Shown here: one piece after another, positions 25,674-47,703 of the stretch
Position numbering within the stretch: the first letter of the stretch is position 1
Layout: every line of letters starts with the position of its first letter
NCBI GenBank assembly: GCA_019753155.1
Contig: JAIELG010000020.1
Location: 8,773 to 72,772 of the forward strand
Reading direction: 5' to 3'
Length of the DNA: 64,000 nt
From: Burkholderiales bacterium
GTDB lineage: Bacteria; Pseudomonadota; Gammaproteobacteria; Burkholderiales; JABEVD01
Translations under genes and position numbers: made by a program
Notes under the pieces: model-generated
What the model was told of the DNA's origin: nothing
Database searches by the model: none
The model's input: only the letters and a program-made list of their open reading frames with translations

Positions 25674-27489
25674 TTGCCTCAACGCGGTTGCGTCCGGCGC
25701 GCTTCGCCTCGTAAAGCGCCCTGTCCGCTGTTGCGAGGAGCTTGTCGATATCGTCGATGGATTTCGAGAGCGTCGCCACGCCTATGGATGCGGTGAAATG
25801 GAACGCTTCGCCTCGTTCCGTTTCAATTTCGGCTGCGGATATATTCTGCCTCAGCCTCTCGGCGACTTCGAACGCCTGGTTTCCGTCCGTTTCGGGTAAA
25901 AGGATTGCGAATTCTTCTCCGCCTATGCGGCCGGTGATATCGACGCCGCGCATGGTCTGGCGGCAGACTTCCGCGAATTTCACCAAGGTCCTGTCCCCGG
26001 TTTGGTGTCCGTAAGCGTCGTTGATGGCTTTGAATTGATCCAGGTCTATCATCAGGATGGAAAGCAGGCTGCCGTAGCGCCCGGTCCTGGCAAGTTCCTG
26101 CGAGGCGAGTTGCAGAAAATGACGACGGTTGGGCAGGCCCGTGAGCATGTCCGTCCTTGCCTGATGCACGAGTTCCGCTTCCAGTTCGAGCCGCTCCGAA
26201 ATGTCCGTTCCCAGTCCCACGAGATAATATTTGCCGTCGATGACTGTTTTGTGTCCGGTAAAGAAATAGGGGGCTTTGTCGCCGCTCTTGGAGACGAGTT
26301 CCGCTTCCGCGGAGGAATCTCCCTTCTCGAACACCTCGAATATTCTTTCCAAGATCAGCTTTTTGTCATCGCCGTCGAAAAAATCCAGGGCGTGCATCCG
26401 CCTGATCTCTTTTTCCGAATAGCCGGTCACTTCGGTGAACTGCGGATTGATCCTGATGAATCTGCCCTTTTCGTCGAGCATGTAGAAGATCCCGGGCAGG
26501 CTGTTGATAATGTCGTCGGAGAGCTGTTTCTGCTGTTGCAGCATGGCTTCGGCCAGCTTGCGTTCGGTGATGTTTTCCTGGATGGCGACATAATGGGCGA
26601 TTCTGCCCGCTTCGTCGAAGATAGGCGAGATGGATGCATGGTCCCAGTACGATTCGCCGTTCTTCTTGCGGTTGTGGAATTCTCCATGCCATTCGCGTCC
26701 GGAGGAGATGCTTGCCCAAAGATGTTCGTATTCGCTTGCAGGCGTTTTCCCGGATTTGAGGATTCTCGGCGTTTTGCCATTGATGTCGTGCAGGGTGTAT
26801 CCGGTCAATTGCGTGAATTTCGGGTTGACGTATTCGAAATAGCCGTTCACATCGGTGATGAGAATGGATACGGGGCTGTGCTCGACCGCGCTGGATAGTT
26901 TCTGCAATTCGCGTTCGATCAACCTGCGGGTGCGCCTGGCTTCCAGCAGTTCATGGGTGCGCGTGGCGAGATTGTCGTAAAGCCTCGTCATGGCATGAAG
27001 CAGGGCTTCATTGGCCTGGTTCATGTAATCGTCCGCGAGGCGCTTCGCTTCCTCGATGGATGCCCCGGATTCGATGGCAAGAATCTTTTTTGCAAGGCGC
27101 ATGTCCGTGCAGAGGATGTGCGACATCAGCCATCTCGACAGGAATGCGAGCATTTTTCCCGTCGCTTCGATCGGTTGGCTGTTTGCGGCGATTCTGGATT
27201 CGGCGAGCTGCTTCACGAATGCATCATGGGCGTCCTTGTGGGAGGCCTCGCTGCAGGCGAGGCGTTGCATCATCTCTTCTTCGTATTTGAAATGGAAATC
27301 CACATAATCATACAATTCGTCGAAAACGCGCAGCAGCGATGCTTCGATCGATTCGGTTTCAGTGAACAGGATCGCGCCCAGGGAATTGATGAGATCCACA
27401 AGGCGCCTGTGCTGCCTGTCGAGTTCGGTTATTCCGGTTTCGAATTGGGTATCCCATACGAATATATCGGAAATGGTTTCTGGATTCAT
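25663..27489 (-). CDS. Diguanylate cyclase with N-terminal hemerythrin-like domain and two PAS domains
   Basis: WDTQFETGITELDRQHRRLVDLIN (bacteriohemerythrin signature), two PAS-like regions, a GGEEF active site and an RGVD I-site 5 residues upstream. Start set at ATG 27489 (MNPETISD). Confidence 0.9.
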   Translation of the reverse strand: MNPETISDIFVWDTQFETGITELDRQHRRLVDLINSLGAILFTETESIEASLLRVFDELYDYVDFHFKYEEEMMQRLACSEASHKDAHDAFVKQLAESRIAANSQPIEATGKMLAFLSRWLMSHILCTDMRLAKKILAIESGASIEEAKRLADDYMNQANEALLHAMTRLYDNLATRTHELLEARRTRRLIERELQKLSSAVEHSPVSILITDVNGYFEYVNPKFTQLTGYTLHDINGKTPRILKSGKTPASEYEHLWASISSGREWHGEFHNRKKNGESYWDHASISPIFDEAGRIAHYVAIQENITERKLAEAMLQQQKQLSDDIINSLPGIFYMLDEKGRFIRINPQFTEVTGYSEKEIRRMHALDFFDGDDKKLILERIFEVFEKGDSSAEAELVSKSGDKAPYFFTGHKTVIDGKYYLVGLGTDISERLELEAELVHQARTDMLTGLPNRRHFLQLASQELARTGRYGSLLSILMIDLDQFKAINDAYGHQTGDRTLVKFAEVCRQTMRGVDITGRIGGEEFAILLPETDGNQAFEVAERLRQNISAAEIETERGEAFHFTASIGVATLSKSIDDIDKLLATADRALYEAKRAGRNRVEAIRL

Positions 27490-27678
27490 GAAAGCGTGCC
27501 TTTGCCGAATCGGTTGGATATAAATCGTAACTAATTGTAACGGTGCTGTTCTTGACATAATTGTAACAGTGTCGGTTCTTCCGGTATGTGCGGAAAGCAA
27601 CGAATGATCGTGATGGTTTAAGTCCCCCGGCTAATATAAAATGTTACGGTATTTCAAAAATTCGAGGAGAAGTGCGAC

Positions 27679-32424: not shown

Positions 32425-33546
32425 ATGATTTTTCGATTTGCGGTATGGCTTCCGTTTCTTCTTGCAGCTTGCAGCCCATCGCCCACGAATCCCGCCGATT
32501 CGAAAGTCTCGAACATCAGGAAAGACATTCCATCAGACCGTCAGCGCGCCAACGGCACGATGAAGGCGGGGATTACGCCGAGCTGCGTGGCCATTTCCGG
32601 GAAATACGCCTACGTGACGAATTCCAATGGCGGCAATATCCTCGTTTATGGAATGGGGGAAAATGGCGCGCTGGAGGCGCTTGCAAGCCCCCCCGTGGTT
32701 TCCGGATGGGGGCCGAACATGATCGCCATCGACCCGATGGGGAAATTCGCCTATACGGCAAATACCGATGCCACCAGCGTTTCGGCCTTCAGTATCGATG
32801 CCCGAACCGGAAATCTGAAAGAGGTCAGGGGCAGCCCTTTCCAGGCCGGGAAAAATCCCACCTTCATCGCGATCGCCCCTTCCGGAAAATATGTCTACGT
32901 GACGAATTACGGCTCGACCACCGTGTCGGCCTACGCCATAGACCGCAATACCGGCGCATTGAGGGAGATCAAGGGTTCTCCCTTCGAATCCGGGAAGGCG
33001 CCCGCTTCGATCGCGGTCGACGGCGCCGGGAAATATGTTTTCGTAGCGAACTCGAATTCCAACGATGTCTCGGTTTTCGCCATCGGGAACGACGGGTCGC
33101 TCGAACCCGTTCGGGGGAGTCCCTTCAGGACGGGCTCGGGACCGTTCGCCATCGCAGTTTCTCCCGGCGGAAACCATGTTTACGTGACGAATTCGCTCAC
33201 CACCAACATGTCGGTATTTTCCATAGGCGAAAACGGGAGCCTTTCCCCTGTGCCGGGAAGCCCTTTCCAGACCGGGATGACGCCGCTCTGGGTGACAATT
33301 GCGCCTGCCGGAAAAAATGTCTACGTGGTGAATTGGCTGGGCGGGGTATCGGCTTACAGTGTCGATCCACAAACCGGCGCACTCTCACAGATCGAAGGCA
33401 GCCCTTTCGAATCCGGTCATGCGCCCAAATCCGTGACCGTCGATCCGACAGGCAAGTTCGCCTATGTCGCCAACGGCGGGGACAATGATGTCACGGCTTA
33501 CGAAATCGATGCTTCGGGTGCGTTGATCTTCATGAAGAAAAACTGA
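32425..33546 (+). CDS. Lactonase-type 7-bladed beta-propeller lipoprotein
   Basis: Lipobox LLAAC at the N-terminus. Repeated G(K/N)(Y/F)(A/V)YV(T/A)N...VS(A/V)(F/Y) blades about 7 times. Confidence 0.8.
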   Translation: MIFRFAVWLPFLLAACSPSPTNPADSKVSNIRKDIPSDRQRANGTMKAGITPSCVAISGKYAYVTNSNGGNILVYGMGENGALEALASPPVVSGWGPNMIAIDPMGKFAYTANTDATSVSAFSIDARTGNLKEVRGSPFQAGKNPTFIAIAPSGKYVYVTNYGSTTVSAYAIDRNTGALREIKGSPFESGKAPASIAVDGAGKYVFVANSNSNDVSVFAIGNDGSLEPVRGSPFRTGSGPFAIAVSPGGNHVYVTNSLTTNMSVFSIGENGSLSPVPGSPFQTGMTPLWVTIAPAGKNVYVVNWLGGVSAYSVDPQTGALSQIEGSPFESGHAPKSVTVDPTGKFAYVANGGDNDVTAYEIDASGALIFMKKN

Positions 33547-33557
33547 CGCTTGTCCGC

Positions 33558-34163
33558 TCAGGGATGAACATGAGGGCGGCAGATATGGTCGAACATGACG
33601 GCGATGCAGGCGCGCACCGGGGTGGTGGAGTTGTCGATCTTCATGCGCAAGAGCGCGCCTTCCCATGCGCTCCAGAAAAAATCCGTGAGCATTTCAGCCG
33701 AAATATCGGTGCGTACAAAACCGCTTTTTTGCGCTTCCTCCAGGCTGCATGCAATATGTTCCTGCCATGAGAGGACAACCTGCTGCAGCGTGTTCTTGCA
33801 CAATTCGCTGGATTCGCTGATTTCTGCGGCGAGATTGCCGATGAGGCATCCTGATTTTATCTCGCTTTTTTCATAGTCGACGATCATCCTCTCGAAACAG
33901 TAACGCAATGCTTCGAGCGGCGTCTGCGGACCTTCGTCGAGGTATCCCGACCATCTGATGGCGAGGGTGTCGGCATAGTGCCGAATGACTTCGTCGGCAA
34001 AGACTTCCTTGCTCTTGAAGTAGTTATAGAAGGAGCCTTTGGGTACTTTCGCGGCATCGACGATTTCCTTGATGCCGGTTCCATTGTAGCCGCGTCTGGA
34101 GAAGAGTTCGAGACCGATCTCCAGCAAAATGGTGCGTGTTTCTGTTCTTTTTTGTTTGTACAT
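33558..34163 (-). CDS. TetR family transcriptional regulator
   Basis: 201 aa. N-terminal HTH ILLEIGLELFSRRGYNGTGIKEIVDAAKVPKGSFYNYFKSKE. Confidence 0.92.
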   Translation of the reverse strand: MYKQKRTETRTILLEIGLELFSRRGYNGTGIKEIVDAAKVPKGSFYNYFKSKEVFADEVIRHYADTLAIRWSGYLDEGPQTPLEALRYCFERMIVDYEKSEIKSGCLIGNLAAEISESSELCKNTLQQVVLSWQEHIACSLEEAQKSGFVRTDISAEMLTDFFWSAWEGALLRMKIDNSTTPVRACIAVMFDHICRPHVHP

Positions 34164-34339
34164 GGTCTAAATTATAGGATTGCCCGCTTCCGGGCGTCAA
34201 ACTTCCGGCGTGAAATGATTGCCATTCGTAGCGCCTGTGTAATACTCCTGTCACAACACGGACGTAAAGTTACGTTATTCACATAGTTTTACATAATTTT
34301 ACAGGCAGTTACAATGGGCCCCGCTGATTTCTGCTTTTT

Positions 34340-34363
34340 CGTGAGACGACCGGTCGTCTCACG
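34340..34363. promoter_or_regulatory. Perfect 24-nt palindrome upstream of exbD (candidate TetR operator or 5'-UTR hairpin)
   Basis: CGTGAGACGACCGGTCGTCTCACG is its own reverse complement. It lies 34 nt upstream of the exbD ATG. No U-run follows on either strand. Confidence 0.5.
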
Positions 34364-34396
34364 CGCGGGCCAAGACCATGAACGATAGGGCGATAA

Positions 34397-34804
34397 ATGA
34401 TTTTCTGGCATGAAGAGCCGAGGAGAAAGGCTCGAATCGAGATCATCCCGATGATCGACGTCATGATGTTTCTGATGGTTTTTTTCGTCCTGATCAGCCT
34501 CCATGTCATTCCGGCAGCCGGAATCAAGACCGAGTTGCCTTCTTCCTCGCACACGGAAGATCTCGATATCGTTCATCACGCAGTGATCACGATAAGCAAA
34601 AGCGAAATTATCCAGCTTGATGGCAAGAATTGCACGCTGGGCACCCTGCCCCAGGAGATCAAGGCGGTTCTGGGCAACTTCAGAAAAGTCGATGTCGTGG
34701 TCAACGGCGACAAGGGGGCGGATATGCAGAAACTGGTCGACGTCATGGATGCCGTCAAGAATTCCGGGATAACAGCGATCTCGATTGCTTCCGGCAAGAA
34801 ATGA
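34397..34804 (+). CDS. exbD: Biopolymer transport protein ExbD/TolR
   Basis: 135 aa. IIPMIDVMMFLMVFFVL TM segment and a periplasmic domain typical of the family. Confidence 0.9.
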   Translation: MIFWHEEPRRKARIEIIPMIDVMMFLMVFFVLISLHVIPAAGIKTELPSSSHTEDLDIVHHAVITISKSEIIQLDGKNCTLGTLPQEIKAVLGNFRKVDVVVNGDKGADMQKLVDVMDAVKNSGITAISIASGKK

Positions 34805-35478
34805 GTTGCGGAATCGCCAATTTTCTTTTCCAGCAGAGGGAATCGGCAGCGCGCATCGCAGCTTTGGTTGCAGGGGTGCTGATGATCGTGGGCCAGGCCA
34901 GGCTGGTTATTTTGCCGGTGCAGAAGAATAGCGAGGAGCCGATCCGGGTGGAGCTCAGGCAGGTCAAGCCGGAACCGCCGCCGGAGCCGCCCAAGCCGAA
35001 GCTCGAGCCGGTTGAGAAGCCCAGGGTGCCCGTGAAAAAGGCCGTGATACCCATGCAGAAGCCTGTTGCGGAAGTGCCTGCGCCTGCGGTGATGCCCGTG
35101 GCCGTGCCGGTGCAGACTGCTCAGCCGGCGCCTGTGGCGAATCCCGCTCCGGCGCAGCAGGCGAGAATCGCGAGCAATGGCGAAAGTGAAAGAAGTTTCG
35201 CCAGAGGTTTGCGGCAGAAGATCGAGTCGCACAAGGTTTATCCCAGGGAAGCATTGTCCCTTGGCATGACCGGGTCCGTGACGCTGCTTTACGTCATAGA
35301 CCGCTTGGGGAGGCTGCTTAAAGTCGAAATCGTGTCCTCTTCGGGAAGCAGGATTCTCGATCAGGCAGCGCTCCAGGCGGTGCGAGCAACGACTTTCCAG
35401 GCCATGCCGGAGGATGCATGGGTTGGCGAGGCGCAAAAGGAGTTCAAAACCAAAATTGATTTTGAAATTGACAATTAA
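34801..35478 (+). CDS. tonB: Energy transducer TonB
   Basis: ATGA overlap with exbD. TM anchor, (E/K)P-rich spacer (KPEPPPEPPKPKLEP), C-terminal YPREALSLGMTGSVTL...ILDQAALQAV domain. Confidence 0.9.
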   Translation: MSCGIANFLFQQRESAARIAALVAGVLMIVGQARLVILPVQKNSEEPIRVELRQVKPEPPPEPPKPKLEPVEKPRVPVKKAVIPMQKPVAEVPAPAVMPVAVPVQTAQPAPVANPAPAQQARIASNGESERSFARGLRQKIESHKVYPREALSLGMTGSVTLLYVIDRLGRLLKVEIVSSSGSRILDQAALQAVRATTFQAMPEDAWVGEAQKEFKTKIDFEIDN

Positions 35479-35489
35479 CCACCGAGGGA

Positions 35490-37724
35490 ATGAAAATGAA
35501 ACTTAAAAGCAAGTTGAAACCCATCTGTGCGGCGATGCTCTGCCTCACGGCAGCAGGCAATGTCTTTGCGGATGGTTCCGTAGACACCGAATCGATATCG
35601 GTCATCGGCACGGGACAAACCAGGCAGGAGCAAAGCATCACCCGCCAGGACATGCAAAATGCGCTTCCCGGCACCAGCCCGCTCAAGGTGCTGTCCAAAT
35701 TGCCCGGCGTGCAGTTCACGTCTTCCGACCCATGGGGTTCCTACGAATGGGCGACCCGCTTCAATGTCCGCGGTTTCAACCAGAACCAGCTCGGCTTCAC
35801 CCTCGACGATATTCCCCTGGGCGACATGAGCTACGGCAACAATAACGGCCTGCATATCAGCCGTGCAATCGCATCCGAAAACATCAGGAACGCATCGATC
35901 GCGGAAGGCAGCGGCAATCTGAGCAAAGCATCCACCAACAATCTTGGCGGCACGGTGCAGTTCGTCTCCACGGATCCGCTTGATGCGTTCGGCGTGCAAG
36001 TCGGACAGACGCTGGGAAGCAGCAAGACCAGCAGGACTTTTGTTCGCCTCGATTCCGGGCGCTTTTCTTCTGGAACGAAAGCCTATATCAGCTTTTCCCG
36101 CAACAGGGCGGACAAGTGGAAGGGATGGGGGCCGCAGAACCAGGATCAGGTCAATGCAAAGCTCGTTCAGATTTCCGGCGAAAACCGCTTCACGGCATTC
36201 CTGAATACCTCCCGCCGCAATGAAACGGACTATGCCGATCTTTCCATCCAGAGCAAGAATCTCCTGGGATGGAACTGGGACAACTATGCGCCCAACTGGC
36301 AGGCCGCAGTCAACGCAGCCAACGGCATCTTCCTTCCCGGCGTTGCCGCAATCACCAATACCCCTGCATTCGGCCAATTGGATGCGGCGTATTACCTCGG
36401 GCGCGGATTGCGCAACGACGAACTGGGCGGACTTGCAGCCGACCTGAAGCTGACCGACTCCACCCGTGCAAAAGCCACCTACTACCATCACCATGATGTC
36501 GGTCAGGGCCACTGGTATACCCCCTACGTGCCTTCTTCCGCGACCGTGCCGATTTCGCTCAGGACCACGGAATACAGCATCAGCCGGGACGGCCTGGTGA
36601 CTTCGTTGACCTACCTCTACGACAACAACGAGATCGAGGGCGGCATATGGGTCGAGCGCAACGTTCATGACCTGACCCGCAATTACTACAACGTGGCGGG
36701 GCCTGCGGATACCGCTTTCTTCCTGAGCAACCCGGCCCTGACGCAATTCAAGCAGAACTTCGTCACGACCACCCGCGTGTTCCATCTTCAGGACACGATT
36801 TCCCTGATGGACGGCAACCTGAAGCTCAATGCCGGCCTGAAAAGCCCGAGGGTCAACATCGATGCGACCAGCCTGATCGGAACGCGCGCCGGAGGACAGC
36901 TCCAGGCCAAGGAAAATTTCCTGCCTTCCCTGGGGTTAAACTTCAAGTTCAACCCGTATGACGAAATGTTCGCATCCATTTCCCAGAACATGCGCGCCTT
37001 CCAGCCTGGTGTCGATGGTCCGTTCTCGACTACCCAGGCCGGCTTCAATGCGATTCAGGGAACCCTGCAACCCGAGAAATCGACCAACATGGAAATCGGC
37101 GTGCGTTCCAACAGGGAGAACCTGCAGGTATCGGCTTCGATTTATACCGTCGATTTCAAGAATCGTCTGCTCAGCATCGCACCGGGCGGGATCACGGGCA
37201 ATCCCAGTGTTTTCGCTAACGTGGGCAAGGTCCAGACCAACGGTTTCCAGGCTGATGCGCTCTGGTCGATCACGCGCAATTTCAAGTGGTTCAACGCCTT
37301 CTCGTACAACGATTCCAAGTACAAGGATAACTACGTGACGGGCGGCGCTGTCGTTGCAACATCAGGAAAAACAGTGGTGGATGCGCCGAAAATGATGTTC
37401 TCGTCTGAACTTTCCTACGAGCAGGACGGATATTTCGCTTCGATCGAGGGGAAATACACCGACAAGCGTTACTACACCTACCTGAACGACGGACAGGTGC
37501 CTGCCTATACCGTGTTCGATCTGACGGCAGGCTACAAGCAGAAGACCCTCGGTTTCATCGAGGACTTCAGGGCTCAGCTCAATGTCACCAACCTGCTGAA
37601 TACGAAATATTTCGGCACCATCGGTTCGAACGGCTTCACGGCTTCCGATCCGGCCGGCACCTTCATGACCTTGCAGACAGGCGCTCCGCAAATGACCTTC
37701 GTTACGGTCAGCGGCAGGTTCTGA
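35490..37724 (+). CDS. TonB-dependent outer membrane receptor
   Basis: 744 aa with signal peptide, plug domain (PGVQF..., RGF...), long beta-barrel and terminal Phe. Confidence 0.93.
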   Translation: MKMKLKSKLKPICAAMLCLTAAGNVFADGSVDTESISVIGTGQTRQEQSITRQDMQNALPGTSPLKVLSKLPGVQFTSSDPWGSYEWATRFNVRGFNQNQLGFTLDDIPLGDMSYGNNNGLHISRAIASENIRNASIAEGSGNLSKASTNNLGGTVQFVSTDPLDAFGVQVGQTLGSSKTSRTFVRLDSGRFSSGTKAYISFSRNRADKWKGWGPQNQDQVNAKLVQISGENRFTAFLNTSRRNETDYADLSIQSKNLLGWNWDNYAPNWQAAVNAANGIFLPGVAAITNTPAFGQLDAAYYLGRGLRNDELGGLAADLKLTDSTRAKATYYHHHDVGQGHWYTPYVPSSATVPISLRTTEYSISRDGLVTSLTYLYDNNEIEGGIWVERNVHDLTRNYYNVAGPADTAFFLSNPALTQFKQNFVTTTRVFHLQDTISLMDGNLKLNAGLKSPRVNIDATSLIGTRAGGQLQAKENFLPSLGLNFKFNPYDEMFASISQNMRAFQPGVDGPFSTTQAGFNAIQGTLQPEKSTNMEIGVRSNRENLQVSASIYTVDFKNRLLSIAPGGITGNPSVFANVGKVQTNGFQADALWSITRNFKWFNAFSYNDSKYKDNYVTGGAVVATSGKTVVDAPKMMFSSELSYEQDGYFASIEGKYTDKRYYTYLNDGQVPAYTVFDLTAGYKQKTLGFIEDFRAQLNVTNLLNTKYFGTIGSNGFTASDPAGTFMTLQTGAPQMTFVTVSGRF

Positions 37725-37736
37725 TCTCAAAATCAC

Positions 37737-37764
37737 GGCGCGGGGTTTCCCCGCGCCTTTTTTA
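37737..37764 (+). terminator. Strong intrinsic terminator after the receptor gene
   Basis: GGCGCGGGG-ttt-CCCCGCGCC (37737-37757) followed by TTTTTT. Confidence 0.85.
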
Positions 37765-37785
37765 TTTCATTACGGGATTCATACC

Positions 37786-38388
37786 ATGTCATTCACAATG
37801 GCTCACGACATCACGATGTATCTGATGACATTCGCAGTGCTGTTTGCGACTTACATCATCGTGGAGCGGGCGCTTTATTTCGGCGCCACATTGCGTGAAG
37901 GAAAGGCCGTCGATCATTATCTGCGCAACCACAGGAAGGACTCAGCCTTGCGTGCGGAACTCCTGAAGCAATTCGGATCGAGCCGCAGCCCTCAGGCACA
38001 GACGCTTTTCGAAGTTGCGGAAGCGGGCAATCTGCCGCACAACGAAATGGAATATTTCGTGCAATCGGTTTACATCGCAAAACAGGACATGCTCAACAAG
38101 CGCCTCTGGATTCTGGACACCATCGTCACGCTGTCCCCGCTGATGGGCCTGCTCGGCACCATACTCGGCATCATCGACGCATTTCACAGCCTCTCTTCAG
38201 GACAGGGCGCTGCGGACCCCGCCGGCGTCAGCCGCGGCATAGGCACTGCGCTTTTCGCAACCGGATTCGGCATTTTCATTGCGCTTTACAGCATGATGTT
38301 CTACAACTACTTCACCAACAAGGTGGAACAGGTCAACAACCAGATGAAGCTGATATCCCTTACTTTTCTCGCCAACAGCAAGCAATGA
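37786..38388 (+). CDS. exbB: MotA/TolQ/ExbB proton-channel family protein
   Basis: 200 aa. LSPLMGLLGTILGII and GIGTALFATGFGIFIA motifs. Confidence 0.9.
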   Translation: MSFTMAHDITMYLMTFAVLFATYIIVERALYFGATLREGKAVDHYLRNHRKDSALRAELLKQFGSSRSPQAQTLFEVAEAGNLPHNEMEYFVQSVYIAKQDMLNKRLWILDTIVTLSPLMGLLGTILGIIDAFHSLSSGQGAADPAGVSRGIGTALFATGFGIFIALYSMMFYNYFTNKVEQVNNQMKLISLTFLANSKQ

Positions 38389-40073
38389 ACCGTCTGCGCC
38401 CATCGATATTTCTTTTCCTCGCATGCCTGCCCGCGAGCGTCCATGCCGCCGCCACCCCGATCGAACATTTGATCGTCATCGTCGGCGAGAACCGGACCTT
38501 CGATAACCTGTTCGCAACCTATACGCCCAAGGGAGGCCAGCGCATTTCCAACCTGTTGTCCAAAGGCATCGTCAAACTGGACGGCAGCCCCGGAAAAAAT
38601 TTCGGACTCGCCGCCCAGCAGCAGGCCGTCGACAACGATCTATACAGCGTCGAACCCAATCGCGTCGGCCCCTACGCCACGCTTCCCCAGCCCTATACCA
38701 CGGGCGCTTTCGGCCAGGCGCTGTATTCGCCCGATCCGAGATTTCCACAGGATCTGCCGAACGGTCCTTTCCAGATCACGAAATACGTCTATTACGGCGC
38801 CCATACCGGAGACCCGGCCCACCGCTTTTTCCAGATGTGGCAGCAGGTCGACGGCGGAAAAATGGATCTCTTCACCTGGGTGGGGACGAGCATAGGCTTC
38901 GGCTCATCCAACGGCCCGCATTCGGGTTCCCCCGGAATGACCGCCCAGGGCGGGGTGTCCATGGGTTTTTACAACATGGCCATGGGAGATGCGCCCATAC
39001 TGCGCAATCTTGCCGAGCATTATGCGATCGGCGACAATTACCATCAGCCCATCATGGGCGGGACAGGGCCCAATTATTTCGCGCTCGCCACAGGGGATGT
39101 CGCCTATTACAGCCGCGAAGGCAAGCCTGAACGCCCTCCCGAGAAGCAGGTCGAGAATCCCGATCCCAGGCCGGGCACGAACAACTGGTACAGGAACGAC
39201 GGCTATGCAGGCGGAAGCTATGTCGATTGTTCCGACGAGAATCAGCCCGGGGTCGCCGGCATCGCCGATTACCTGAAGAAGCTTCCCTACAAGGCATTCA
39301 ACGGCGGCAATTGCGCGCCCAATACCTACTATCTCGTCAATAATTACGAACCGGGGTATTCCGCTTCCGGGGAGCCTGCCGCGCTCGGCCCCGATCATTT
39401 CACCGTCCCGCCCCTTGCCGTCCCGAATATAGGCGAGGCGCTTTCCGCAGGAAAAGTAAGTTGGAAATGGTATGCCGGGGGGCGTGGGGACGGCAAGAGC
39501 ACGGTCAACAAGGAATACTGCACCATATGCGACCCCTTCACCTTCTCGAGCCGCGTCATGACGACGCAGCTCAGGGACAATTTGCAGGATCTGAGCCGGT
39601 TCTACAGCGATGTCGGAAAAGACCTTCCCGCAGTATCCTTCATCAGCCCCTATGACAGCATATCGGGGCATCCCGGCTATGCCATGGAGCCCGGATTCGA
39701 TCAGTTCGTCGAGGACATCATCGAGAAAGTCCGGCAGAACAGGAAGCTCTGGGAAAAAACCGCTATACTGATCACCTACGACGAAGGGGGTGGATACTAT
39801 GATTCGGGCTATATCCAGACCCTGGACTTTTTCGGGGATGGAACGCGCATTCCGGTCATCGCGGTGTCTCCCTATGCGAAAAAGGGTTTCGTCGACCATA
39901 CTTACTACGACCATGTTTCAATTCTCAAATTCATCGAAAAAAACTGGGGATTGCCGCCCCTGTCTTCGCGCAGCCGGGACAATCTGCCAAACCCGGTGCA
40001 AAAGGATTCTTATATCCCGCTCAACCGCCCCGCGATAGGCGATTTGATGAATCTGTTCGAATTTGGAAAGTGA
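38385..40073 (+). CDS. Secreted phosphoesterase family protein (PLC/AcpA superfamily)
   Basis: ATGA overlap with exbB. Signal peptide. IEHLIVIVGENRTFDNLF N-terminal motif of the phosphoesterase (PF04185-type) family. Confidence 0.8.
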   Translation: MNRLRPSIFLFLACLPASVHAAATPIEHLIVIVGENRTFDNLFATYTPKGGQRISNLLSKGIVKLDGSPGKNFGLAAQQQAVDNDLYSVEPNRVGPYATLPQPYTTGAFGQALYSPDPRFPQDLPNGPFQITKYVYYGAHTGDPAHRFFQMWQQVDGGKMDLFTWVGTSIGFGSSNGPHSGSPGMTAQGGVSMGFYNMAMGDAPILRNLAEHYAIGDNYHQPIMGGTGPNYFALATGDVAYYSREGKPERPPEKQVENPDPRPGTNNWYRNDGYAGGSYVDCSDENQPGVAGIADYLKKLPYKAFNGGNCAPNTYYLVNNYEPGYSASGEPAALGPDHFTVPPLAVPNIGEALSAGKVSWKWYAGGRGDGKSTVNKEYCTICDPFTFSSRVMTTQLRDNLQDLSRFYSDVGKDLPAVSFISPYDSISGHPGYAMEPGFDQFVEDIIEKVRQNRKLWEKTAILITYDEGGGYYDSGYIQTLDFFGDGTRIPVIAVSPYAKKGFVDHTYYDHVSILKFIEKNWGLPPLSSRSRDNLPNPVQKDSYIPLNRPAIGDLMNLFEFGK

Positions 40074-40080
40074 TTTGACG

Positions 40081-41541
40081 ATGATGAAGAAAATCGCCCT
40101 TGCCCTCGCGCTTTCATGCCTCGATGGCGCGGCATTCGCCGCCGGAACCCCGATCAGGCATGTGGTCGTGATCTTTCAGGAAAACGTCTCCTTCGACCAT
40201 TATTTTGCGACTTACCCCAAGGCCTTGAACGAAGCCGGCGATCCGCCTTTTCATGCGAAGGCGAACACTCCTTCCGTCAACGGGCTGAACGATGCTCTGC
40301 TCGGGCACAATCCCAATTCGGCCAACCCGCACCGCTTCGAGCGGCGCGAAGCGATGACCTGCGACATGGAGCATGAATATACCGCAGAGCAGCTCGCTTT
40401 CGATGCCGGACTCATGGACAGGTTCGTCGAATATACGGCAGCAGCCTCGAAAGCATGCGATCCGAAACAGGTGATGGGCTATTTCGACGGCAATACCGTG
40501 ACCGCGTTGTGGAACTATGCCCAGCATTTTGCCATGAGCGACAATTTTTTCGGGACCACTTTCGGGCCTTCCACGCCGGGGGCGCTCAACCTGATTTCCG
40601 GACAGACCCATGGCGCGACGCCATCCGATTTGCCCGAGGCCACGAAGGCAGGATCGGTCTACGGGGATCCGGACCCTGCTTATGACGACTGCTCCAAAGG
40701 CGAAAAGATTTCGATGTCCGGAATGAACGTCGGCGACCTGCTCAACTCGAAGCATCTCACCTGGGGCTGGTTCGAAGGGGGGTTCCGCCCCACCGGATAT
40801 GACGGGAGCGTTGCGCTTTGCGGCGCGACAAGCCGCAATATCGCAGGAGAAGTCATCCCCGATTACAGCCCGCATCACGAACCCTTTCAGTATTATGCCT
40901 CGACCTCCAATCCGCACCATCTCCCTCCTTCCGGGATGGATAACATCGGCCATACGGACAGGGCGAACCACCAGTACGACCTGAAGGATTTCTGGGTCGC
41001 CGCAGAGTCGGGGCATCTTCCCGCAGTCAGCTTCCTCAAGGCGAGGATGGCCCAGGACGGGCATGCAGGCTATTCCGACCCGCTGGATGAGCAGGAGTTC
41101 ATCGTGGCAACGCTCAACCGCCTGCAGAAACTGAAGGAATGGAAAAACACCGCCGTGTTCATCACTTACGACGATTCGGACGGCTGGTACGACCATGTGA
41201 TGGGGCCGATCGTGAGCCAGTCGGACTCCAGCATCGATGCGCTGACCGGCAACGGGCATTGCGGCAAGACCGGGGACGGCGCTTATGCCGGTCGCTGCGG
41301 GTACGGACCGCGCCTGCCTCTGTTCGCGATTTCCCCGTGGGCGAAATCCAATTATGTGAGCCATTCCATTGCCGACCAATCCTCCATACTGCGCTTCATC
41401 GAAGACAACTGGAATCTGGGAAGGATAGGGGACCAGTCCTTCGATACGCAGGCAGGCGCGCTGGACGACCTGTTCGATTTCAGCCGTCCCCGCAGTACCA
41501 CCCTCATTCTGGATACTTTCAGCGGCCTTCCCAAAAAATGA
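40081..41541 (+). CDS. Acid phosphatase AcpA-like phosphoesterase
   Basis: MMKKIALALALS signal peptide. IRHVVVIFQENVSFDHYFATYP. The C-terminal YDDSDGWYDHV and FAISPWAK motifs are typical of AcpA/PLC enzymes. Confidence 0.82.
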   Translation: MMKKIALALALSCLDGAAFAAGTPIRHVVVIFQENVSFDHYFATYPKALNEAGDPPFHAKANTPSVNGLNDALLGHNPNSANPHRFERREAMTCDMEHEYTAEQLAFDAGLMDRFVEYTAAASKACDPKQVMGYFDGNTVTALWNYAQHFAMSDNFFGTTFGPSTPGALNLISGQTHGATPSDLPEATKAGSVYGDPDPAYDDCSKGEKISMSGMNVGDLLNSKHLTWGWFEGGFRPTGYDGSVALCGATSRNIAGEVIPDYSPHHEPFQYYASTSNPHHLPPSGMDNIGHTDRANHQYDLKDFWVAAESGHLPAVSFLKARMAQDGHAGYSDPLDEQEFIVATLNRLQKLKEWKNTAVFITYDDSDGWYDHVMGPIVSQSDSSIDALTGNGHCGKTGDGAYAGRCGYGPRLPLFAISPWAKSNYVSHSIADQSSILRFIEDNWNLGRIGDQSFDTQAGALDDLFDFSRPRSTTLILDTFSGLPKK

Positions 41542-41616
41542 TCGGGAAACGGCGGGTCATAGCGCTTTCATAAAACTGCGCTAGAATAGGCCCTTGTTTC
41601 GAAGAGAGGGATCAGG

Positions 41617-44172
41617 ATGAAGGAAGGCGCCCGGTTTTTTATGGAGATCAACCCGCAGATCCCGCAGAGGCTCGCCCGCCTCGTCGAGATATCCGACAAT
41701 CTCTGGTATAGCTGGGACAAGCCGACCAGAACGCTTTTCGCGCGCATGAATCCCAAGCTCTGGGATGCGGTGGGGCACAATCCGAAAGTATTCCTGAGGC
41801 GTCTGGACGAGAGCACCCTTATCGATGCGGCGGACGATCAGGTCTATCTTTCGGCTTACCATCGCGTACTCTCCTCCTTCGACACTTATCACGGAGACCC
41901 CCTTAATCGTAACGGGGGAGCCGGGCTGGATAAGGACGATCTCGTCGCCTATTTCTGCGCAGAATTCGGTTTTCATGAAAGTTTCCCGATTTATTCGGGC
42001 GGACTCGGTATCCTGGCCGGGGACCATTGCAAGGCTGCAAGCGATATGAGGCTGCCTTTCGTCGGGGTGGGTTTTCTTTATCGGCGCGGTTATTTTTCCC
42101 AGGAGATCGATGCCGAAGGCAATCAGATCGTCAAGCACAACGAATCCGATGCGGCCGATCTTCCGGTGAGTCCCGCGCTGGACGAAGCCGGGCGCGAAAT
42201 TGTCGTGAGCATCGATTTTCCTGGAAGGGAAGTATTCGCCAAGATCTGGACAGCGAGGGTCGGCACGATCATGCTTTATCTGCTCGACACCGATCTGCCG
42301 GGAAATCCGGATGCGGATCGACGCATATCCCACGAGCTTTACGGCGGCGACAGCACCAACCGCATCCAGCAGGAAATCATCCTCGGCGTGGGCGGCGTCA
42401 GGGCGCTCGAAGCCGTCGGCCTGAAGCCCACGGTATGGCACATCAACGAGGGGCATGCCGCATTCCTGCTCCTCGAGCGGATCAGGAAAATGGTCGAGCA
42501 GGGACTCGATTTTCCGACCGCGCTGGAAGCTGTCGCATCCAACACCGTATTTACGACTCATACCCCGGTTCCGGCAGGGCACGATCATTTCAACGAGGAA
42601 ATGGTGGCGGAATATTTCCATCACTGCTGCACGCTCGTGGGCATGCCGAAAGAAGCCATGCTTTCCCTGGGCTACGACCCGGACAATCCCAGCGAATTCA
42701 ACATGACGGCGCTTGCAGTGCGCGCTTCGCGCTTCCAGAATGGCGTGAGCCGCATCCATGGCGAAGTTTCCTCGCGCATATGCTCGAAGTTTTGGCCGGA
42801 AATTCTGCCCGAAGAAAATCCGATGACTTACATCACGAATGGGGTGCATGTTCCGACTTTTCTCGCAGAAGAATGGGTGGATCTTTTCGACAAGTTCCTG
42901 GGCGGCGAGTGGCGCAACCATATTTCGGACGAGCGCTTCTGGAAGAATATCGACGACATTCCCGACCATCTCTACTGGAGCGTGCGCCAGTCGCTCAAGG
43001 CGCAGATGCTCTACGGACTGCGTTCCGTCATCAGTAGTCGGCATTTGCGCAACAGCGGCAGCGAGGCGCATCTCGACCGCATCCTGAAATATCTGGACAG
43101 TTACGATCCCAATGTATTGACTATAGGCTTTGCGAGGCGCTTTGCGACTTACAAGCGGGCGACGCTGCTGTTCGACAACATCGACTGGCTGAAAGAGATA
43201 CTCTCCGACCCGGAACGCCCCGTCATTTTCATTTTCGCAGGCAAGGCGCATCCTGCAGACCAGCCGGGGCAGGATCTCATCCGGCAGATCAACGGGCTTT
43301 CGCAGATGCCCGAGTTCGAAGGGAAAATCCTGCTCGTCGAAGGCTACGACATGGGTCTCTCCCGCCGCCTCGTTTCCGGCGTCGATGTCTGGCTCAATAC
43401 GCCGCTCTATCCGCTGGAAGCGAGCGGCACTTCCGGGATGAAGGCGAGCATCAACGGCGCGATCAATCTGAGCGTTCTGGACGGCTGGTGGGGCGAGGGA
43501 TATAACGACACCAACGGCTGGGCGGTGAAGCCCTCTCCCGAACATCTGGATATTTTCAGGAGAAATCGCGAGGAGAGCCGAACCCTGTATGAAATCCTCC
43601 AGGACAAGGTCATTCCGGTTTACTACAATCGCGGAAAATACGGTTATCCGGAGGAATGGGTCAAAAAATCGAAGCGGGCCATGGCTTCCGTCCTGCCGCG
43701 CTTCAATGCGGGCAGGATGGTGGGGGAATATGTCTCGAAATGCTACCTGTCCGCGAGCAGCCAGGGGAAAGTCTATTCCGAAGACAATTATGCTGCGGCC
43801 AGGGCGGTTTCGGCGTGGAAGGCGAAAGTGAAAAAAGCCTGGCCCCTCATTACGATCAGGCGGGTGGATGAAGCGCGAAAAAGTCTGCGCTTTGGGGAAG
43901 ACCTGCACTTCGAGGTGGCGCTCTATCTCGACGGCCTCGACGAGCATGACGTTATCGTCGAGTTGCTCTACAACAGGTCATACATACATGACACCAAGAA
44001 GTTTCAGAAGAGCGGCAAGTTCGTGTTCGACAGGATGGCAGGGCGGGAGCATATTTTCGTGCTGGGTATCAAGCCTGAAATTTGCGGACTCATCGATTAC
44101 CAGATTCGCGTCCATCCCTATCATGCGCACCTTACCCACCCATTGGAATGCGGACTCATGACATGGCTTTGA
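41617..44172 (+). CDS. glgP: Alpha-glucan phosphorylase (GT35, alpha-glucan family)
   Basis: 851 aa. [23 protein letters not shown], and [11 protein letters not shown] (PLP lysine region). Confidence 0.92.
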
Positions 44173-44610: not shown

Positions 44611-45333
44611 ATGTGTGCGGTTTGCGGCTGCGGGGAAAAGAAAAGCTATCTCGGGAAGTTCGGCCATGCTCCGGGCATGAACGCTTCGCGCATGATACGC
44701 ATCGAGCGGGACATACTCGGCAGGAACGATGCCCGTGCGAGAGAAAACCGCAGCCATCTCGATGAGCGCGGCATATTCGCGCTGAATCTGGTTTCGAGTC
44801 CGGGTTCGGGGAAGACAAGCCTGCTCGTCAGAACCATAGAGGCGCTGAAAGAGCGGGTTCCCATCGCGGTGATAGAAGGCGATCAGCAGACATCGAACGA
44901 TGCGGAGCGCATCAGGAAAACCGGGATTCAGGCGATCCAGATCAATACGGGAAAGGGATGTCACCTGGACGCGCATATGGTCGGGGATGCATTGAAGAAG
45001 CTGGATCTCATGGACAGGAGCCTGCTCCTGATCGAAAATGTGGGCAATCTCGTCTGCCCCGCATCCTTCGATCTCGGGGAGCATCGCAAGGTTGTCGTCC
45101 TCTCCGTCACCGAAGGCGAGGACAAGCCGCTCAAGTATCCCGACATGTTCATGGCCTCCAGCCTCATGCTGCTCAACAAGACGGATCTGTTGCCGTATCT
45201 CGAATTCGATACCGGGCAGTGCATCGCCAACGCGCTCGAAATCAATCCGGATATGGGCGTGATACGGACTTCCGCAAAAAACTGCGACGGGCTTTCAGAA
45301 TGGGTGTCCTGGATAGCGGAGAAGCTTGCATGA
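44611..45333 (+). CDS. hypB: Hydrogenase maturation GTPase HypB
   Basis: MCAVCGCG N-terminal nickel site, GSGKT P-loop, [10 protein letters not shown]. Confidence 0.95.
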
Positions 45334-46403
45334 CGCCGATAGCGCTGAAATCTCCCGGCGCGCAGGTGCTCGCCTGCGGCGCGTGGCTCAAGAACACGGT
45401 GTGCCTGACGAAGGGGGATGAGGCTTTTCTTTCCGGCAATATCGGCGATCTCGACAGCAGGGAAAGCTGCTCGGCTTTCGAGGAGAACATCAGCGACATG
45501 ATGTCGGCGCTCGATATCGAGCCCGGGGCGGTTGCCTGCGACATGCATCCGGACTTCCACAGCAGCCGTTTTGCGAGCCGGTTTGCAGTCGAGAAGGGCG
45601 TCCCGCTTTTTCGCGTCCAGCATCATCATGCCCATATCGCGGCGATTCAGGCCGAACACGGAATGGAGCAGGTTCTCGGGCTTGCCCTGGATGGGGTGGG
45701 ATACGGACTGGACGGCGGAATATGGGGGGGCGAGCTCCTGATGGTCCGCGGCCCGGACATGGAAAGGCTGGGCCATCTTCGCGAATTGCCGCTTCCTGGG
45801 GGGGACAGGGCCGCGAGGGCGCCGTGGCGCATCGCAGCCGGGGTGCTTCATCTTCTGGGCAGGCATGACGAGATCGCGGCGCGCTTCGATGAGCCGGGCG
45901 CAAGCATGGTTGCGCAGATGCTGCAAAGGGGGTGCCCCATGACGAGCAGCGCAGGCCGCTGGTTCGATGCGGCATCCGCCTTGCTGGGGGTCAATCTCAA
46001 TGCAAGCTTCGAAGCTCAGGCCGCGATGGAACTCGAAGCGCTTGCCCGCGCTCATGGGGAAGTCGAGCCCATGATTGACGGTTATATTATCGAAGAGGGT
46101 GTGCTGAACTTCCTGCCGCTGATGGTTCGTCTTGCCGACATCCGGGACGCCGCATATGGGGCAGCCCTCTTCCATGCCACGTTTTCCAGGGGACTCGCGG
46201 ATTGGGTCATCCAGGCTTCAAGTGAAACGGGATTGACCGCCATTGCGCTGGGAGGGGGATGTTTCCAGAATACAGTCATGCGCACCCTGCTCGTAAAACA
46301 CCTCCACGGATTCGAGGTGTCGATCCCGAACCGGGCGCCCTGCAACGACGGGGGAATCAGCCTCGGCCAGGCGCAGGTCGCTCGCGCATTGCTGGGGAGC
46401 TGA
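45330..46403 (+). CDS. hypF: HypF-like carbamoyltransferase, Kae1-like C-terminal domain only
   Basis: ATGA overlap with hypB. The 357 aa align by eye only to the C-terminal half of HypF ([13 protein letters not shown]..., HHHAH, GGCFQN). No acylphosphatase, zinc-finger or YrdC-like region. Confidence 0.8.
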
Positions 46404-46624: not shown

Positions 46625-47703
46625 AATATATCGACGAGTTTCGCGATCCGCACCTTGCCGGGGAGATCGCGAAACAAATAGAGCGGGAAGCGCTGGGGAG
46701 CTACCATCTGATGGAATTCTGCGGCGGTCATACCCACGCCGTCTCCCGTCATGGCATCAAGTCGCTGCTTCCGCACAACGTCAGCATGATACATGGGCCG
46801 GGATGCCCGGTCTGCGTGCTTCCTGTGGGCAGGATCGACAATGCGATCGGGATCGCGGAAAAAGCCATCCTCTGCACTTATGCGGACATGATGCGCGTCC
46901 CGGCTTCGGGAGGGGGCAGCCTCATGCAGGCGAGAGCCTCCGGAGCGGATATCCGCATGGTCTATTCCAGCCAGGATGCCGTCAGGATAGCAAGGGCGCA
47001 TCCGGAGAGGGAAGTCGTTTTTTTCGCGATTGGCTTCGAAACCACCGCGCCGTCGACTGCGGCGGCCATAATCGAGGCGCAGGATCTGGATAACTTCAGC
47101 GTGTTCTGCAATCACGTGCTCACGCCTCCTGCCATGCAGAGCATACTCGATACGCCGGATTTGAGGCTGAACGGCATTCTTGGCCCGTCCCATGTCAGCA
47201 CCGTCATCGGCACGAAGGCCTACGAAGGCATCGTGTCCGCATATAAAGTCCCCATGGTGATCGCAGGGTTCGAGCCGCTGGATGTCATGCAGTCCATACT
47301 GATGCTGGTGAGGCAATTGAACGAGGGAAGGGCGGAGGTGGAGAACGAATACACCAGGGCCGTCAGCCATGATGGGAACCTGAAGGCGCAGCGCCTGATG
47401 GAGCAGGTCTTCGTCGTGCGCCCTTCGTTCGAATGGCGCGGGCTTGGCGAGGTGCCTTCGAGCGCCCTGTCGATAGCGGAAAGTTACAGCAGCTTCGATG
47501 CCGAATCGCGCTTTTGCATCGCCTACACGCCTGTTCCGGATGCGAAGGCATGCGAATGCGGGGAAGTGCTGCGCGGGTTGAAGCAGCCGCAGGATTGCCG
47601 GGTTTTTGGTACGGCCTGCACCCCGTCCAATCCCATAGGCGCGTGCATGGTGTCTTCGGAAGGGGCCTGCGCCGCGCATTATGCTTATGGGCGAACGGCA
47701 TGA
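46621..47703 (+). CDS. hypD: Hydrogenase maturation factor HypD
   Basis: 360 aa. MKYIDEFRD, CGGHTH, GPGCPVCV, FETTAP. Confidence 0.95.
   Translation: MKYIDEFRDPHLAGEIAKQIEREALGSYHLMEFCGGHTHAVSRHGIKSLLPHNVSMIHGPGCPVCVLPVGRIDNAIGIAEKAILCTYADMMRVPASGGGSLMQARASGADIRMVYSSQDAVRIARAHPEREVVFFAIGFETTAPSTAAAIIEAQDLDNFSVFCNHVLTPPAMQSILDTPDLRLNGILGPSHVSTVIGTKAYEGIVSAYKVPMVIAGFEPLDVMQSILMLVRQLNEGRAEVENEYTRAVSHDGNLKAQRLMEQVFVVRPSFEWRGLGEVPSSALSIAESYSSFDAESRFCIAYTPVPDAKACECGEVLRGLKQPQDCRVFGTACTPSNPIGACMVSSEGACAAHYAYGRTA

Follow-up and report, generated by a model that had tools for sequence, protein, structure and literature searches.

A stretch of 64,000 nucleotides from a Burkholderiales bacterium (contig JAIELG010000020.1, hereafter the window) contains a locus in which the genes of a TonB-dependent transporter (TBDT) and of the motor families ExbB, ExbD and TonB are found together with two phosphoesterase genes, called PE1 and PE2 here (Table 1). 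An earlier reading of this DNA from its letters alone (the original prediction) had described it as a TonB-energised organophosphate capture locus rather than a siderophore system. In this study, genes were called from the listing and translation of open reading frames (ORFs) together with Pfam and NCBIfam scans, and overlaps and gaps were read from the DNA. The gene list, coordinates, overlaps, 11-nt gap and terminator given earlier were all present.

The exbD and tonB genes share an ATGA overlap (34801-34804), and the TBDT gene begins 11 nt after tonB. A second ATGA overlap (38385-38388) joins exbB to PE1; exbB itself is separated from its exbD and tonB partners by 2.3 kb and a terminator. 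PE2 had been given as a 492-aa AcpA-like phosphatase. The family assignment holds, but the length is probably 486 aa, as the ATG at 40081 (MMKKIALAL...), 7 nt past the PE1 stop, is more probably the start than the TTG at 40063.

Table 1. Genes and sequence elements of the locus (positions in the window)
Feature	Position	Strand	Details
TetR-family regulator, divergent, 201 aa	33558-34163	-	PF00440 and TetR_C_13; AcuR-like, below cut-off
tetR promoter, sigma-70-like	34171-34200	-	TTGACG-18-TATAAT, 11/12; region kept between window and locus L085
Pho-box-like direct repeat	34237-34254	+	GTGTAAT-ACTC-CTGTCAC (GTGTAATACTCCTGTCAC); 11/14 to CTGTCAT-N4-CTGTCAT
-10 hexamer	34265-34270	+	TAAAGT, exactly 10 nt past the Pho box
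Perfect 24-bp palindrome, exbD leader	34340-34363		CGTGAGACGACCGGTCGTCTCACG; candidate TetR operator
exbD, 135 aa	34397-34804	+	PF02472, E=6e-25
tonB, 225 aa	34801-35478	+	PF03544, E=3e-17
TBDT, 744 aa	35490-37724	+	Plug E=1e-10, barrel E=5e-39
Intrinsic terminator/attenuator hairpin	37737-37767	+	GGCGCGGGG-TTT-CCCCGCGCC and T-run; 9-bp all-GC stem 37737-37757, -21.4 kcal/mol
exbB, 200 aa	37786-38388	+	MotA/TolQ/ExbB, PF01618, E=2e-27
PE1, Sec-signal phosphoesterase, 562 aa	38385-40073	+	PF04185, E=7e-62
PE2, AcpA-type acid phosphatase, 486 aa	40081-41541	+	PF04185, E=2e-83

Receptor, motor and phosphoesterases

The receptor has the parts of a TBDT. Reading of the translation revealed a signal peptide with a cleavage-like VFA/DG, a TonB-box-like ESISVIG and a terminal ...SGRF with a C-terminal Phe as the aromatic residue, in addition to the Plug domain and a barrel of the 22-strand family. 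No N-terminal signalling extension was seen in the translation or the domain scan. The receptor scored below the NCBIfam cut-offs of TIGR01783 (122.8 vs 223.5), TIGR01785 (79.9 vs 316.9) and TIGR01786 (74.8 vs 323.8) and far below those of FecA, FoxA, PqqU and all the other equivalog models. It has no close solved relative in the PDB, where single-sequence and profile searches gave partial matches only (best profile match 5nec, E=2e-19). These searches, aimed at specificity, matched many siderophore, PQQ and metallophore receptors, all of them distantly and in part. Proteins of the clade are annotated as "TonB-dependent receptor" or "iron complex outermembrane receptor".

These scores bear on a rival explanation, the uptake of iron or another metal, in which the TBDT would import a ferric chelate or a ferric phosphate or organophosphate, and the phosphatases would supply or remove the phosphate ligand. 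Such a model was published for clusters of a TonB-dependent receptor (TBDR), ExbBD, TonB and AcpA or PhoD in Acidithiobacillus and Leptospirillum (PMC2631029). The best NCBIfam match of the receptor is to the TonB-siderophore subfamily, the iron-complex annotation of the source databases points the same way, and Sideroxydans and Gallionella, to which the lineage is related, oxidise iron. However, that best match lies far under its cut-off, and the signalling domain is lacking.

The ExbB, ExbD and TonB families are all represented in this one locus, above the Pfam cut-offs. The TonB protein reads as a hydrophobic anchor (IAALVAGVLMIVG), a Pro-rich spacer (PEPPPEPPKPKLEPVEKPRVPVKK) and a TonB_C domain at residues 144-222. 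SxxxH, the anchor motif of E. coli TonB, was not evident in the translation. The locus proteins scored below every cut-off of the NCBIfam equivalogs for exbB, exbB2, ExbD_1/2, tolQ, tolR and TonB (PRK10819). By model score, the motor proteins are divergent family members that are not assignable to TonB or Tol; the context of a receptor and a TonB_C domain favours TonB.

The proposed membership of both enzymes in PF04185 was confirmed, and both keep the catalytic residues of the family. In AcpA, the nucleophile is Ser, the metal ligands are E43, N44, D386 and D387, and phosphate is bound by H106, H287, H288 and H350 (PMC6635428). PE2 aligns end to end with AcpA of Francisella tularensis (PDB 2D1G, E=1.7e-148), and residue-by-residue reading found all nine residues in place (E43, N44, H106, S175, H287, H288, H350, D386 and D387 in Ft-AcpA numbering). 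Its score against acid_phos_Burk, an NCBIfam model of a Burkholderia subfamily, is below the cut-off (160 vs 363). On this alignment, PE2 is an AcpA orthologue.

PE1 is a more distant member of the superfamily (E=2e-22 to AcpA and ~1e-17 to phospholipases C, PLCs) and lies below the NCBIfam cut-offs of acid_phos_Burk (185 vs 363) and PC_PLC (TIGR03396; 126 vs 580). Its closest named relative is a protein of a Sideroxydans metagenome-assembled genome (MAG; 77% identity), and a "Burkholderiales bacterium" MAG encodes an identical protein (100%). In a profile alignment of 17 PE1 homologues to PE2/AcpA, E35, N36, D143xxH146, T227, H429, D466 and E467 were invariant; E35/N36, T227, H429 and D466/E467 fall on AcpA catalytic positions and D143xxH146 on H106. 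This is the set of the Thr-nucleophile PLC/NPC-type enzymes, although the correspondence to NPC4 (E23, N24, D76, H79, T158, H264, D299, E300; Thr nucleophile; PMC9837106) is by motif and not by direct alignment. The His287-His288 pair of AcpA is replaced in PE1 by Ile381-Cys382, inside an invariant C379xxC382-D383 that belongs to an invariant E-Y-C-x-x-C-D at residues 377-383. The published NPC4 mechanism likewise invokes no such His pair (PMC9837106). The CxxCD motif could provide a disulfide or an extra metal site and could define a distinct PF04185 subfamily. PE1 thus has the Thr nucleophile, D-E and DxxH in common with PLCs of the type of plant NPC4; it differs from AcpA by the CxxCD motif and from bacterial PlcH, another member of the superfamily, by having PF04185 as its sole Pfam domain. 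PlcH-type enzymes are expected to have C-terminal repeat domains and a twin-arginine (Tat) signal. The Pfam scan of PE1 found no domain besides PF04185, and no twin-arginine motif was seen in its N-terminus (MNRLRPSIFLF...); it therefore does not have the features of a phosphocholine-specific PLC (PlcH/PlcN). We infer a diesterase-like activity for PE1 and a broad monoesterase activity for PE2; phosphate could then be set free in two successive steps. An AlphaFold2 model of PE1 from the 17-sequence alignment (mean pLDDT 46.7) was too poor for a fold search and was not used.

Both enzymes and the receptor start with Sec-type signal peptides, as judged by reading. The phosphoesterases had been called secreted, and the evidence for this goes as far as these signal peptides (VHA/AA and AFA/AG in the enzymes). 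The enzymes may instead be secreted onward after Sec export and act outside the cell or on its surface, with the TBDT importing not their substrate but their product or another phosphorus species such as pyrophosphate, polyphosphate, a released head group or a carbon moiety. PlcH, an enzyme of the same family, carries a Tat motif. PlcH and AcpA are reported to be secreted in other bacteria (PMC2673038), type II secretion is tied to phosphate starvation in Caulobacter, and PE1 homologues in Bradyrhizobium adjoin a GspD-like secretin gene. Secretion genes were not found near the locus in the window by the flanking-gene scan, however; the signal peptides of PE1 and PE2 are plain Sec peptides without a Tat motif, and the analogous PUS loci of Bacteroidetes are modelled with periplasmic enzymes. 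On these indirect grounds, an extracellular site of action is considered unlikely. The secretin gene of Bradyrhizobium lies ~0.8 kb upstream of the PE1 homologue (L055, L056 and L058; sequence inspection), hinting that type II secretion exports some members of the PE1 family.

Conservation of the gene order, the hairpin and the enzyme partners

A genome collection was searched with the PE1 alignment, and the window proteins were mapped onto the 80 loci obtained (loci are designated by L and a number). Because this enzyme-anchored set is biased, metagenomes were also searched with a receptor alignment, which gave 80 loci at 43-56% identity. The order exbD-tonB-TBDT-hairpin-exbB was kept in 13 other loci with receptor identities of 46-81% (L001, L002, L004, L014, L032, L084, L085, L088, L089, L090, L097, L114 and L134). 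Some of these loci are from Gallionellaceae or Sterolibacterium, the others from MAGs without assignment or from metagenome contigs. PE1 is the next gene in 11 of the 13, and the contigs of the other two (L088 and L134) stop just past exbB. The complete series exbD-tonB-TBDT-exbB-PE1 was found in Sideroxydans (L001), an unassigned MAG (L002), Sterolibacterium (L004, whose contig begins within tonB) and Gallionella MAGs (L014 and L032). The metagenomic relatives L084 and L085, which are 83% identical, have the entire seven-gene set, with PE2 and the downstream phosphorylase gene among the seven. Six exbD-tonB-TBDT-exbB loci were added by the receptor-side scan, with PE1 next in L089, L090, L097 and L114. 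In Sulfuricellaceae (L003), an exbB-PE1 pair was found at a contig edge.

Such recurrence, in 13 independent loci, goes beyond chance, and the linkage to phosphoesterases is conserved from the enzyme side as well as from the receptor side. The layout had been called unusual against exbB-exbD-tonB, and this permuted order, with the enzymes after exbB, is the one that recurs. The exbB-exbD(-tonB) operon of E. coli and of most other proteobacteria has the same three families and the same expected motor, whereas here exbB stands downstream of the receptor gene and the hairpin. Translational coupling of exbB to PE1 had also been proposed. The tight linkage is kept, but the ATGA overlap is particular to the window, the gap in relatives being 3 nt and upwards.

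PE1 also follows the receptor gene directly, without exbB, in Undibacterium, Janthinobacterium lividum, an Oxalobacteraceae MAG, Dyella, Rhodanobacter, Duganella and several unassigned MAGs; the adjacency thus reaches Oxalobacteraceae and Rhodanobacteraceae. The third gene of the downstream module varies between AcpA (window, L084, L085) and PhoX-like (L014, L032, L089, L090, L097). When all neighbours were strictly clustered, the receptor came first among the neighbours of PE1-family genes, with 14 loci, followed by a protein like di-heme cytochrome c peroxidase (10 loci, sequence inspection) and a PhoX-like protein (4 loci). The second of these is a ~450-aa CxxCH protein resembling di-heme cytochrome c peroxidase/MauG, encoded directly downstream of the PE1 homologue in Collimonas, Glaciimonas, Dyella, Rhodanobacter and Paraburkholderia (L051, L057, L059, L064, L066, L067, L069, L074, L075 and L080).

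The terminator after the receptor gene is the strongest in the region. Its T-run ends ~18 nt before exbB, and no promoter match was found between the terminator and exbB or just upstream. A GC-rich hairpin (-16 to -30 kcal/mol) occurs in all 14 of the TBDT-to-exbB spacers, which are 53-72 nt long, and most have a T-rich tract after it. The stem sequences differ while the pairing persists, which indicates that the hairpin is under selection. Its likeliest role, as judged from these sequences, is partial termination or stabilisation of the 3' end of the receptor transcript, giving unequal levels of the two operon halves.

A canonical strong terminator between the halves could also mean that two unrelated units happen to be neighbours. 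In that case exbD-tonB-TBDT would stop at the terminator, exbB-PE1-PE2 would be an operon in its own right, and receptor and enzymes would have no functional link. Indeed, about 60 of the 80 PE1-family genes and most receptor homologues occur apart. But ExbD and TonB would then have no ExbB partner unless the downstream exbB serves them, the ~18 nt between the T-run and exbB hold no promoter match, the order and the hairpin are kept at family-level divergence, and receptor and PE1 are adjacent even where exbB is absent. Two unrelated units are thus highly improbable.

The partners of the receptor clade were counted by clustering and Pfam annotation of neighbours, then by tblastn with representatives. 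A phosphoesterase lies within 3.5 kb of the receptor in 35 of 80 metagenomic homologues: PhoD-like in 20 (usually the next gene), PF04185 in 7, NPP-type PF01663 in 6 (usually the preceding gene) and as a small PF01663 protein within an ABC operon in 5, GDPD in 4 and PhoX-like in 3. Among isolates, the gene after the receptor homologue encodes a PF04185 enzyme in Duganella, a PHP-family CehA/McbA metallohydrolase in J. agaricidamnosum and a PotD/PhnS-like ABC importer in one Undibacterium. That the receptor is paired again and again with unrelated folds, alike only in their phosphoester chemistry, is the strongest argument for a clade that handles phosphorus compounds. As to iron, J. agaricidamnosum has a ChaN-like PF04187 gene upstream, and an Nramp gene is nearby in three loci; however, no FecIR pair, siderophore enzyme, PF01497 binding protein or ferric reductase was found among the annotated recurrent neighbours of the receptor.

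In L001 and L084, the locus abuts an ABC importer operon with genes for two permeases, an ATPase and an aminoethylphosphonate-like binding protein, and with one for a small NPP-family enzyme. The small enzyme gene (PF01663, alkaline phosphatase superfamily, 270-282 aa) lies between the binding-protein and permease genes, and an HAD-IB hydrolase gene comes after (L001 275-5553, L084 275-5524). A small PF01663 homologue is also found 2-4 kb downstream of TBDT-PhoD pairs in L139, L143, L144, L146, L152 and L158. Divergently upstream of the receptor-PhoD pairs of L129, L138 and L159 are genes for a GT4-family glycosyltransferase and a ~180-aa protein, which may be connected with phosphate-starvation lipid remodelling.

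Promoter elements and local regulators

In E. coli, PhoB-activated promoters have 7-bp direct repeats in 11-bp phase that replace the -35 element and end 10 bp before the -10. The exbD promoter of the window shows this layout. Seven Pho-box-like matches occur in the 64 kb, one of them in the tetR-exbD intergenic region. At the measured background of 6.6e-5 per position, the 233-nt spacer would hold an 11/14 match with a probability of ~0.03, and the geometry lowers it further. In L134, which is also exbD-first, an 11/14 box is followed by TCGTAAAGT, with the same layout and -10 as in the window. In L085, CGTAAAGT around the -10 is kept and the Pho box is degenerate.

The same element was frequent upstream of receptor homologues. 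A Pho box (>=10/14) followed by 10 nt and TAnnnT was counted 15 times in the 26 kb upstream of receptors and 21 times in the whole of the fetched metagenomic DNA (1.87 Mb, both strands), an enrichment of ~50-fold upstream of receptors. It is present in 15 of 74 homologue promoters, with ~0.3 expected. The layout was seen in all seven TBDT-first promoters inspected by eye, mostly from Oxalobacteraceae, where up to four nnGTCAT-N4-nnGTCAT repeats in 11-bp phase precede the 10 nt and TAnnnT.

Fur-box scans were negative. In a consensus scan, the best match in the window promoter (34164-34396) was 11/19, although the Fur motif of the lineage may differ, and none of the 74 homologue promoters had a match of at least 13/19 (~2 expected by chance). 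Taken with the enriched PhoB-type promoters, the sub-threshold siderophore score and the lack of iron-uptake genes among recurrent neighbours, this makes iron or metal uptake quite unlikely, and the capture of organophosphates in place of siderophores that had been proposed is supported in silico. The three points on which the original prediction was said to stand or fall (identity of the receptor, linkage to the phosphoesterases, catalytic residues) were each checked in silico, and none spoke against it.

The palindrome in the exbD leader is unique in the window, with 0 expected. Its core is kept in L085, which has an orthologous TetR gene at the same position, and nothing aligns with it in L084 or L001, both without TetR; it is therefore likely to be the TetR operator. 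A divergent TetR gene was thus correctly described for the window, but as a component of the locus it is found in only one of the three close relatives, and TetR was rejected as a conserved component. In its place, L084 carries a gene for a GntR/UTRA (PhnF-like) regulator before the ABC operon next to the locus, and L001 has an operator-like motif (TGGACTAG) with no visible regulator gene. The local regulator therefore appears to be lineage-specific. The motif TGGACTAG, part of a GGACTAGTCC-like palindrome, is rare (11 occurrences in 165 loci) and absent from the window. In L001, copies at 62-69 and 5716-5723 stand before the ABC operon and the exbD operon; in L084, an exact copy precedes exbD (5739-5746) and a one-mismatch copy the ABC operon. 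Joint control of the outer- and inner-membrane steps by a HutC-type repressor is thereby suggested for these two loci.

Between the PE2 stop and the start of the alpha-glucan phosphorylase gene glgP (41617) is another Pho-box-like promoter, whose geometry is perfect (GGGTCATAGCGCTTTCAT, 10 nt, TAGAAT; 41554-41587); it was excluded from the unit. Its -10 is kept in L085 and L084 and its box is not, so the element may be due to chance.

Phosphorus capture as the probable function

The region 34237-41541 is probably a self-contained phosphorus-scavenging unit rather than an iron uptake system; from the comparative evidence we put the probability at roughly two in three. In the proposed mechanism, a PhoB-type promoter would drive exbD-tonB-TBDT, and the divergent TetR would gate it further through the palindromic operator. 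The hairpin after the receptor gene would pass only part of transcription into exbB-PE1-PE2; with partial termination, mRNA for the receptor, ExbD and TonB would be abundant and that of the downstream module lower. ExbB, ExbD and TonB would form a dedicated motor that energises the TBDT with the proton motive force, and uptake would thus not depend on the iron-regulated TonB system. The TBDT would take into the periplasm a phosphorus-containing solute that porins cannot supply because of its size, its charge or its low concentration; a phosphodiester or another organophosphate is the likeliest candidate. There, the Sec-exported PE1 (Thr-nucleophile, PLC/NPC-type) and PE2 (a broad acid phosphomonoesterase of AcpA type), presumably acting in the order diesterase then monoesterase, would free orthophosphate, which would be taken up by a phosphate or organophosphate transporter of the inner membrane encoded elsewhere.

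Neither the principle nor the general idea is new, and comparable gene associations have been published. In Flavobacterium johnsoniae, PUS (PusCD) loci combine TonB-dependent SusCD transporters with exported phosphomono- and diesterases and are induced by phosphate depletion (PMC8115612). The likeness lies in a TBDT co-localised with exported phosphoesterases and in a model of outer-membrane capture and periplasmic hydrolysis. However, the PUS loci have a SusC-type transporter with a SusD lipoprotein and PhoA, phosphodiesterase or phytase enzymes, whereas the present locus has a SusD-less classical TBDT, its own motor and two PF04185 enzymes. No SusD-like gene was found in 33558-41541 and no PF13715 or PF13620 in the receptor; by analogy, the locus may work like a PUS locus without being a member.

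The clusters of Acidithiobacillus and Leptospirillum, for which Osorio et al. (2008) proposed an iron-phosphate link (PMC2631029), also combine a receptor, a TonB motor and an AcpA-family or PhoD phosphatase in chemolithotrophic iron/sulfur oxidisers, with PhoB-family regulators nearby. The likeness is one of gene categories; those clusters were read as Fe(III) uptake under predicted Fur control, keep ExbB, ExbD and TonB together and include a surface-layer protein. In Pseudomonas aeruginosa, exbB2-exbD2-tonB4 (PA0693-PA0695) is induced by phosphate starvation and uncharacterised in its role (PMC7035377). It is likewise a second, dedicated motor in a phosphate-starvation (PhoB / sigma-VreI) and not an iron regulon, but its genes are in the order exbB-exbD-tonB and adjoin the Hxc secretion system, LapA and PdtAB instead of a receptor-phosphoesterase operon. 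In Caulobacter crescentus, PhoB-controlled TBDRs are proposed importers of alternative phosphate donors (PMC11208175). These are proteobacterial receptors co-regulated with phosphatases and phosphodiesterases; the likeness lies in their regulation, and neither a dedicated motor nor coupling to PF04185 enzymes has been described for them. What is new here is a proteobacterial, SusD-less, motor-carrying version with PF04185 enzymes in a permuted and conserved gene order.

Several points weigh against a phosphorus-scavenging unit. The evidence for it is comparative, and the periplasmic location of the enzymes is a prediction. The best family match of the receptor, sub-threshold as it is, remains the generic TonB-siderophore model (122.8 bits); 45 of the 80 receptor homologues have no recognisable phosphoesterase neighbour, and the other 35 are a raw count within this one clade. 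ExbB is needed in excess over ExbD in the ExbB-ExbD complex, and a strong terminator directly before exbB, with no promoter match, is awkward. The Pho box of the window matches at 11/14 only, has a weak first half-site and is only partly conserved in L085, the closest TetR-bearing relative. An E. coli-type Pho box is absent from most exbD-first leaders (L001, L014, L032, L084, L088-L090, L097) and was not found in promoters of the PhoD/NPP-linked receptor subclade; Gallionella/Sideroxydans-type loci and those of the PhoD/NPP subclade carry other conserved AT-rich elements. The support for phosphate control is therefore good in the sister subclade and only moderate for the window promoter.

A broader proposal is more tentative, with the odds slightly against it. 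The receptor may represent a widespread proteobacterial clade of PhoB-controlled phosphorus transporters that swaps at least five unrelated phosphoesterase families (PF04185, PhoD, NPP, GDPD and PhoX-like, with a PHP-family hydrolase in one genome). The permuted TonB motor of its own would have been acquired in iron-/sulfur-oxidising Betaproteobacteria, freeing phosphorus capture from iron-regulated TonB. If this is true and the ligand is identified, the locus would be the first defined TonB-dependent importer of organophosphate or condensed phosphate in Proteobacteria, where TonB-powered outer-membrane phosphorus uptake is only suspected, whereas it is documented in Bacteroidetes. No report of a substrate for this receptor clade was found in the literature. 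Phosphorus is strongly adsorbed to iron oxyhydroxides where Gallionellaceae-like iron oxidisers live, and their phosphorus acquisition is poorly known. The annotation of clade proteins as iron-complex or generic receptors would be affected. Relatives in the cultivable Janthinobacterium, Duganella and Undibacterium make this a genetically testable, well-delimited candidate with predicted regulatory sites; if the phosphorus reading holds, growth should be lost on specific esters at low concentration.

None of the flanking genes, which encode a lactonase-like propeller, the alpha-glucan phosphorylase, Hyp proteins and a GGDEF protein, has a relation to phosphate or iron, and neither pst nor phoBR was found among the 10 flanking genes scanned in the window. 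Long antisense ORFs (35475-36785, 38904-39914, 40114-41379 and 41581-43947, all on the minus strand, 336-788 aa) sit opposite the genes of the receptor, both enzymes (PE1 and PE2) and the phosphorylase. Since the sense-strand ORFs hold all domain matches, the antisense ORFs were rejected as genes and treated as shadow ORFs that arise from the high GC content of the coding strand. Directly upstream of tetR, a lactonase-like 7-bladed beta-propeller with a lipoprotein-type N-terminus (LLAAC) is encoded at 32425-33546; its gene was not detected beside the locus in the relatives searched. Downstream lie genes for a HypF-like protein (44958-46403) with C-terminal Kae1-like domains only, in which no acylphosphatase or zinc-finger N-terminus was detected, and for a HypE-like AIR-synthase-family protein (47433-48707). 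This pair could be a remnant or variant of hydrogenase maturation. Further upstream, a hemerythrin-PAS-GGDEF diguanylate cyclase (25663-27600, minus strand) possibly takes part in oxygen- or iron-sensing c-di-GMP signalling.

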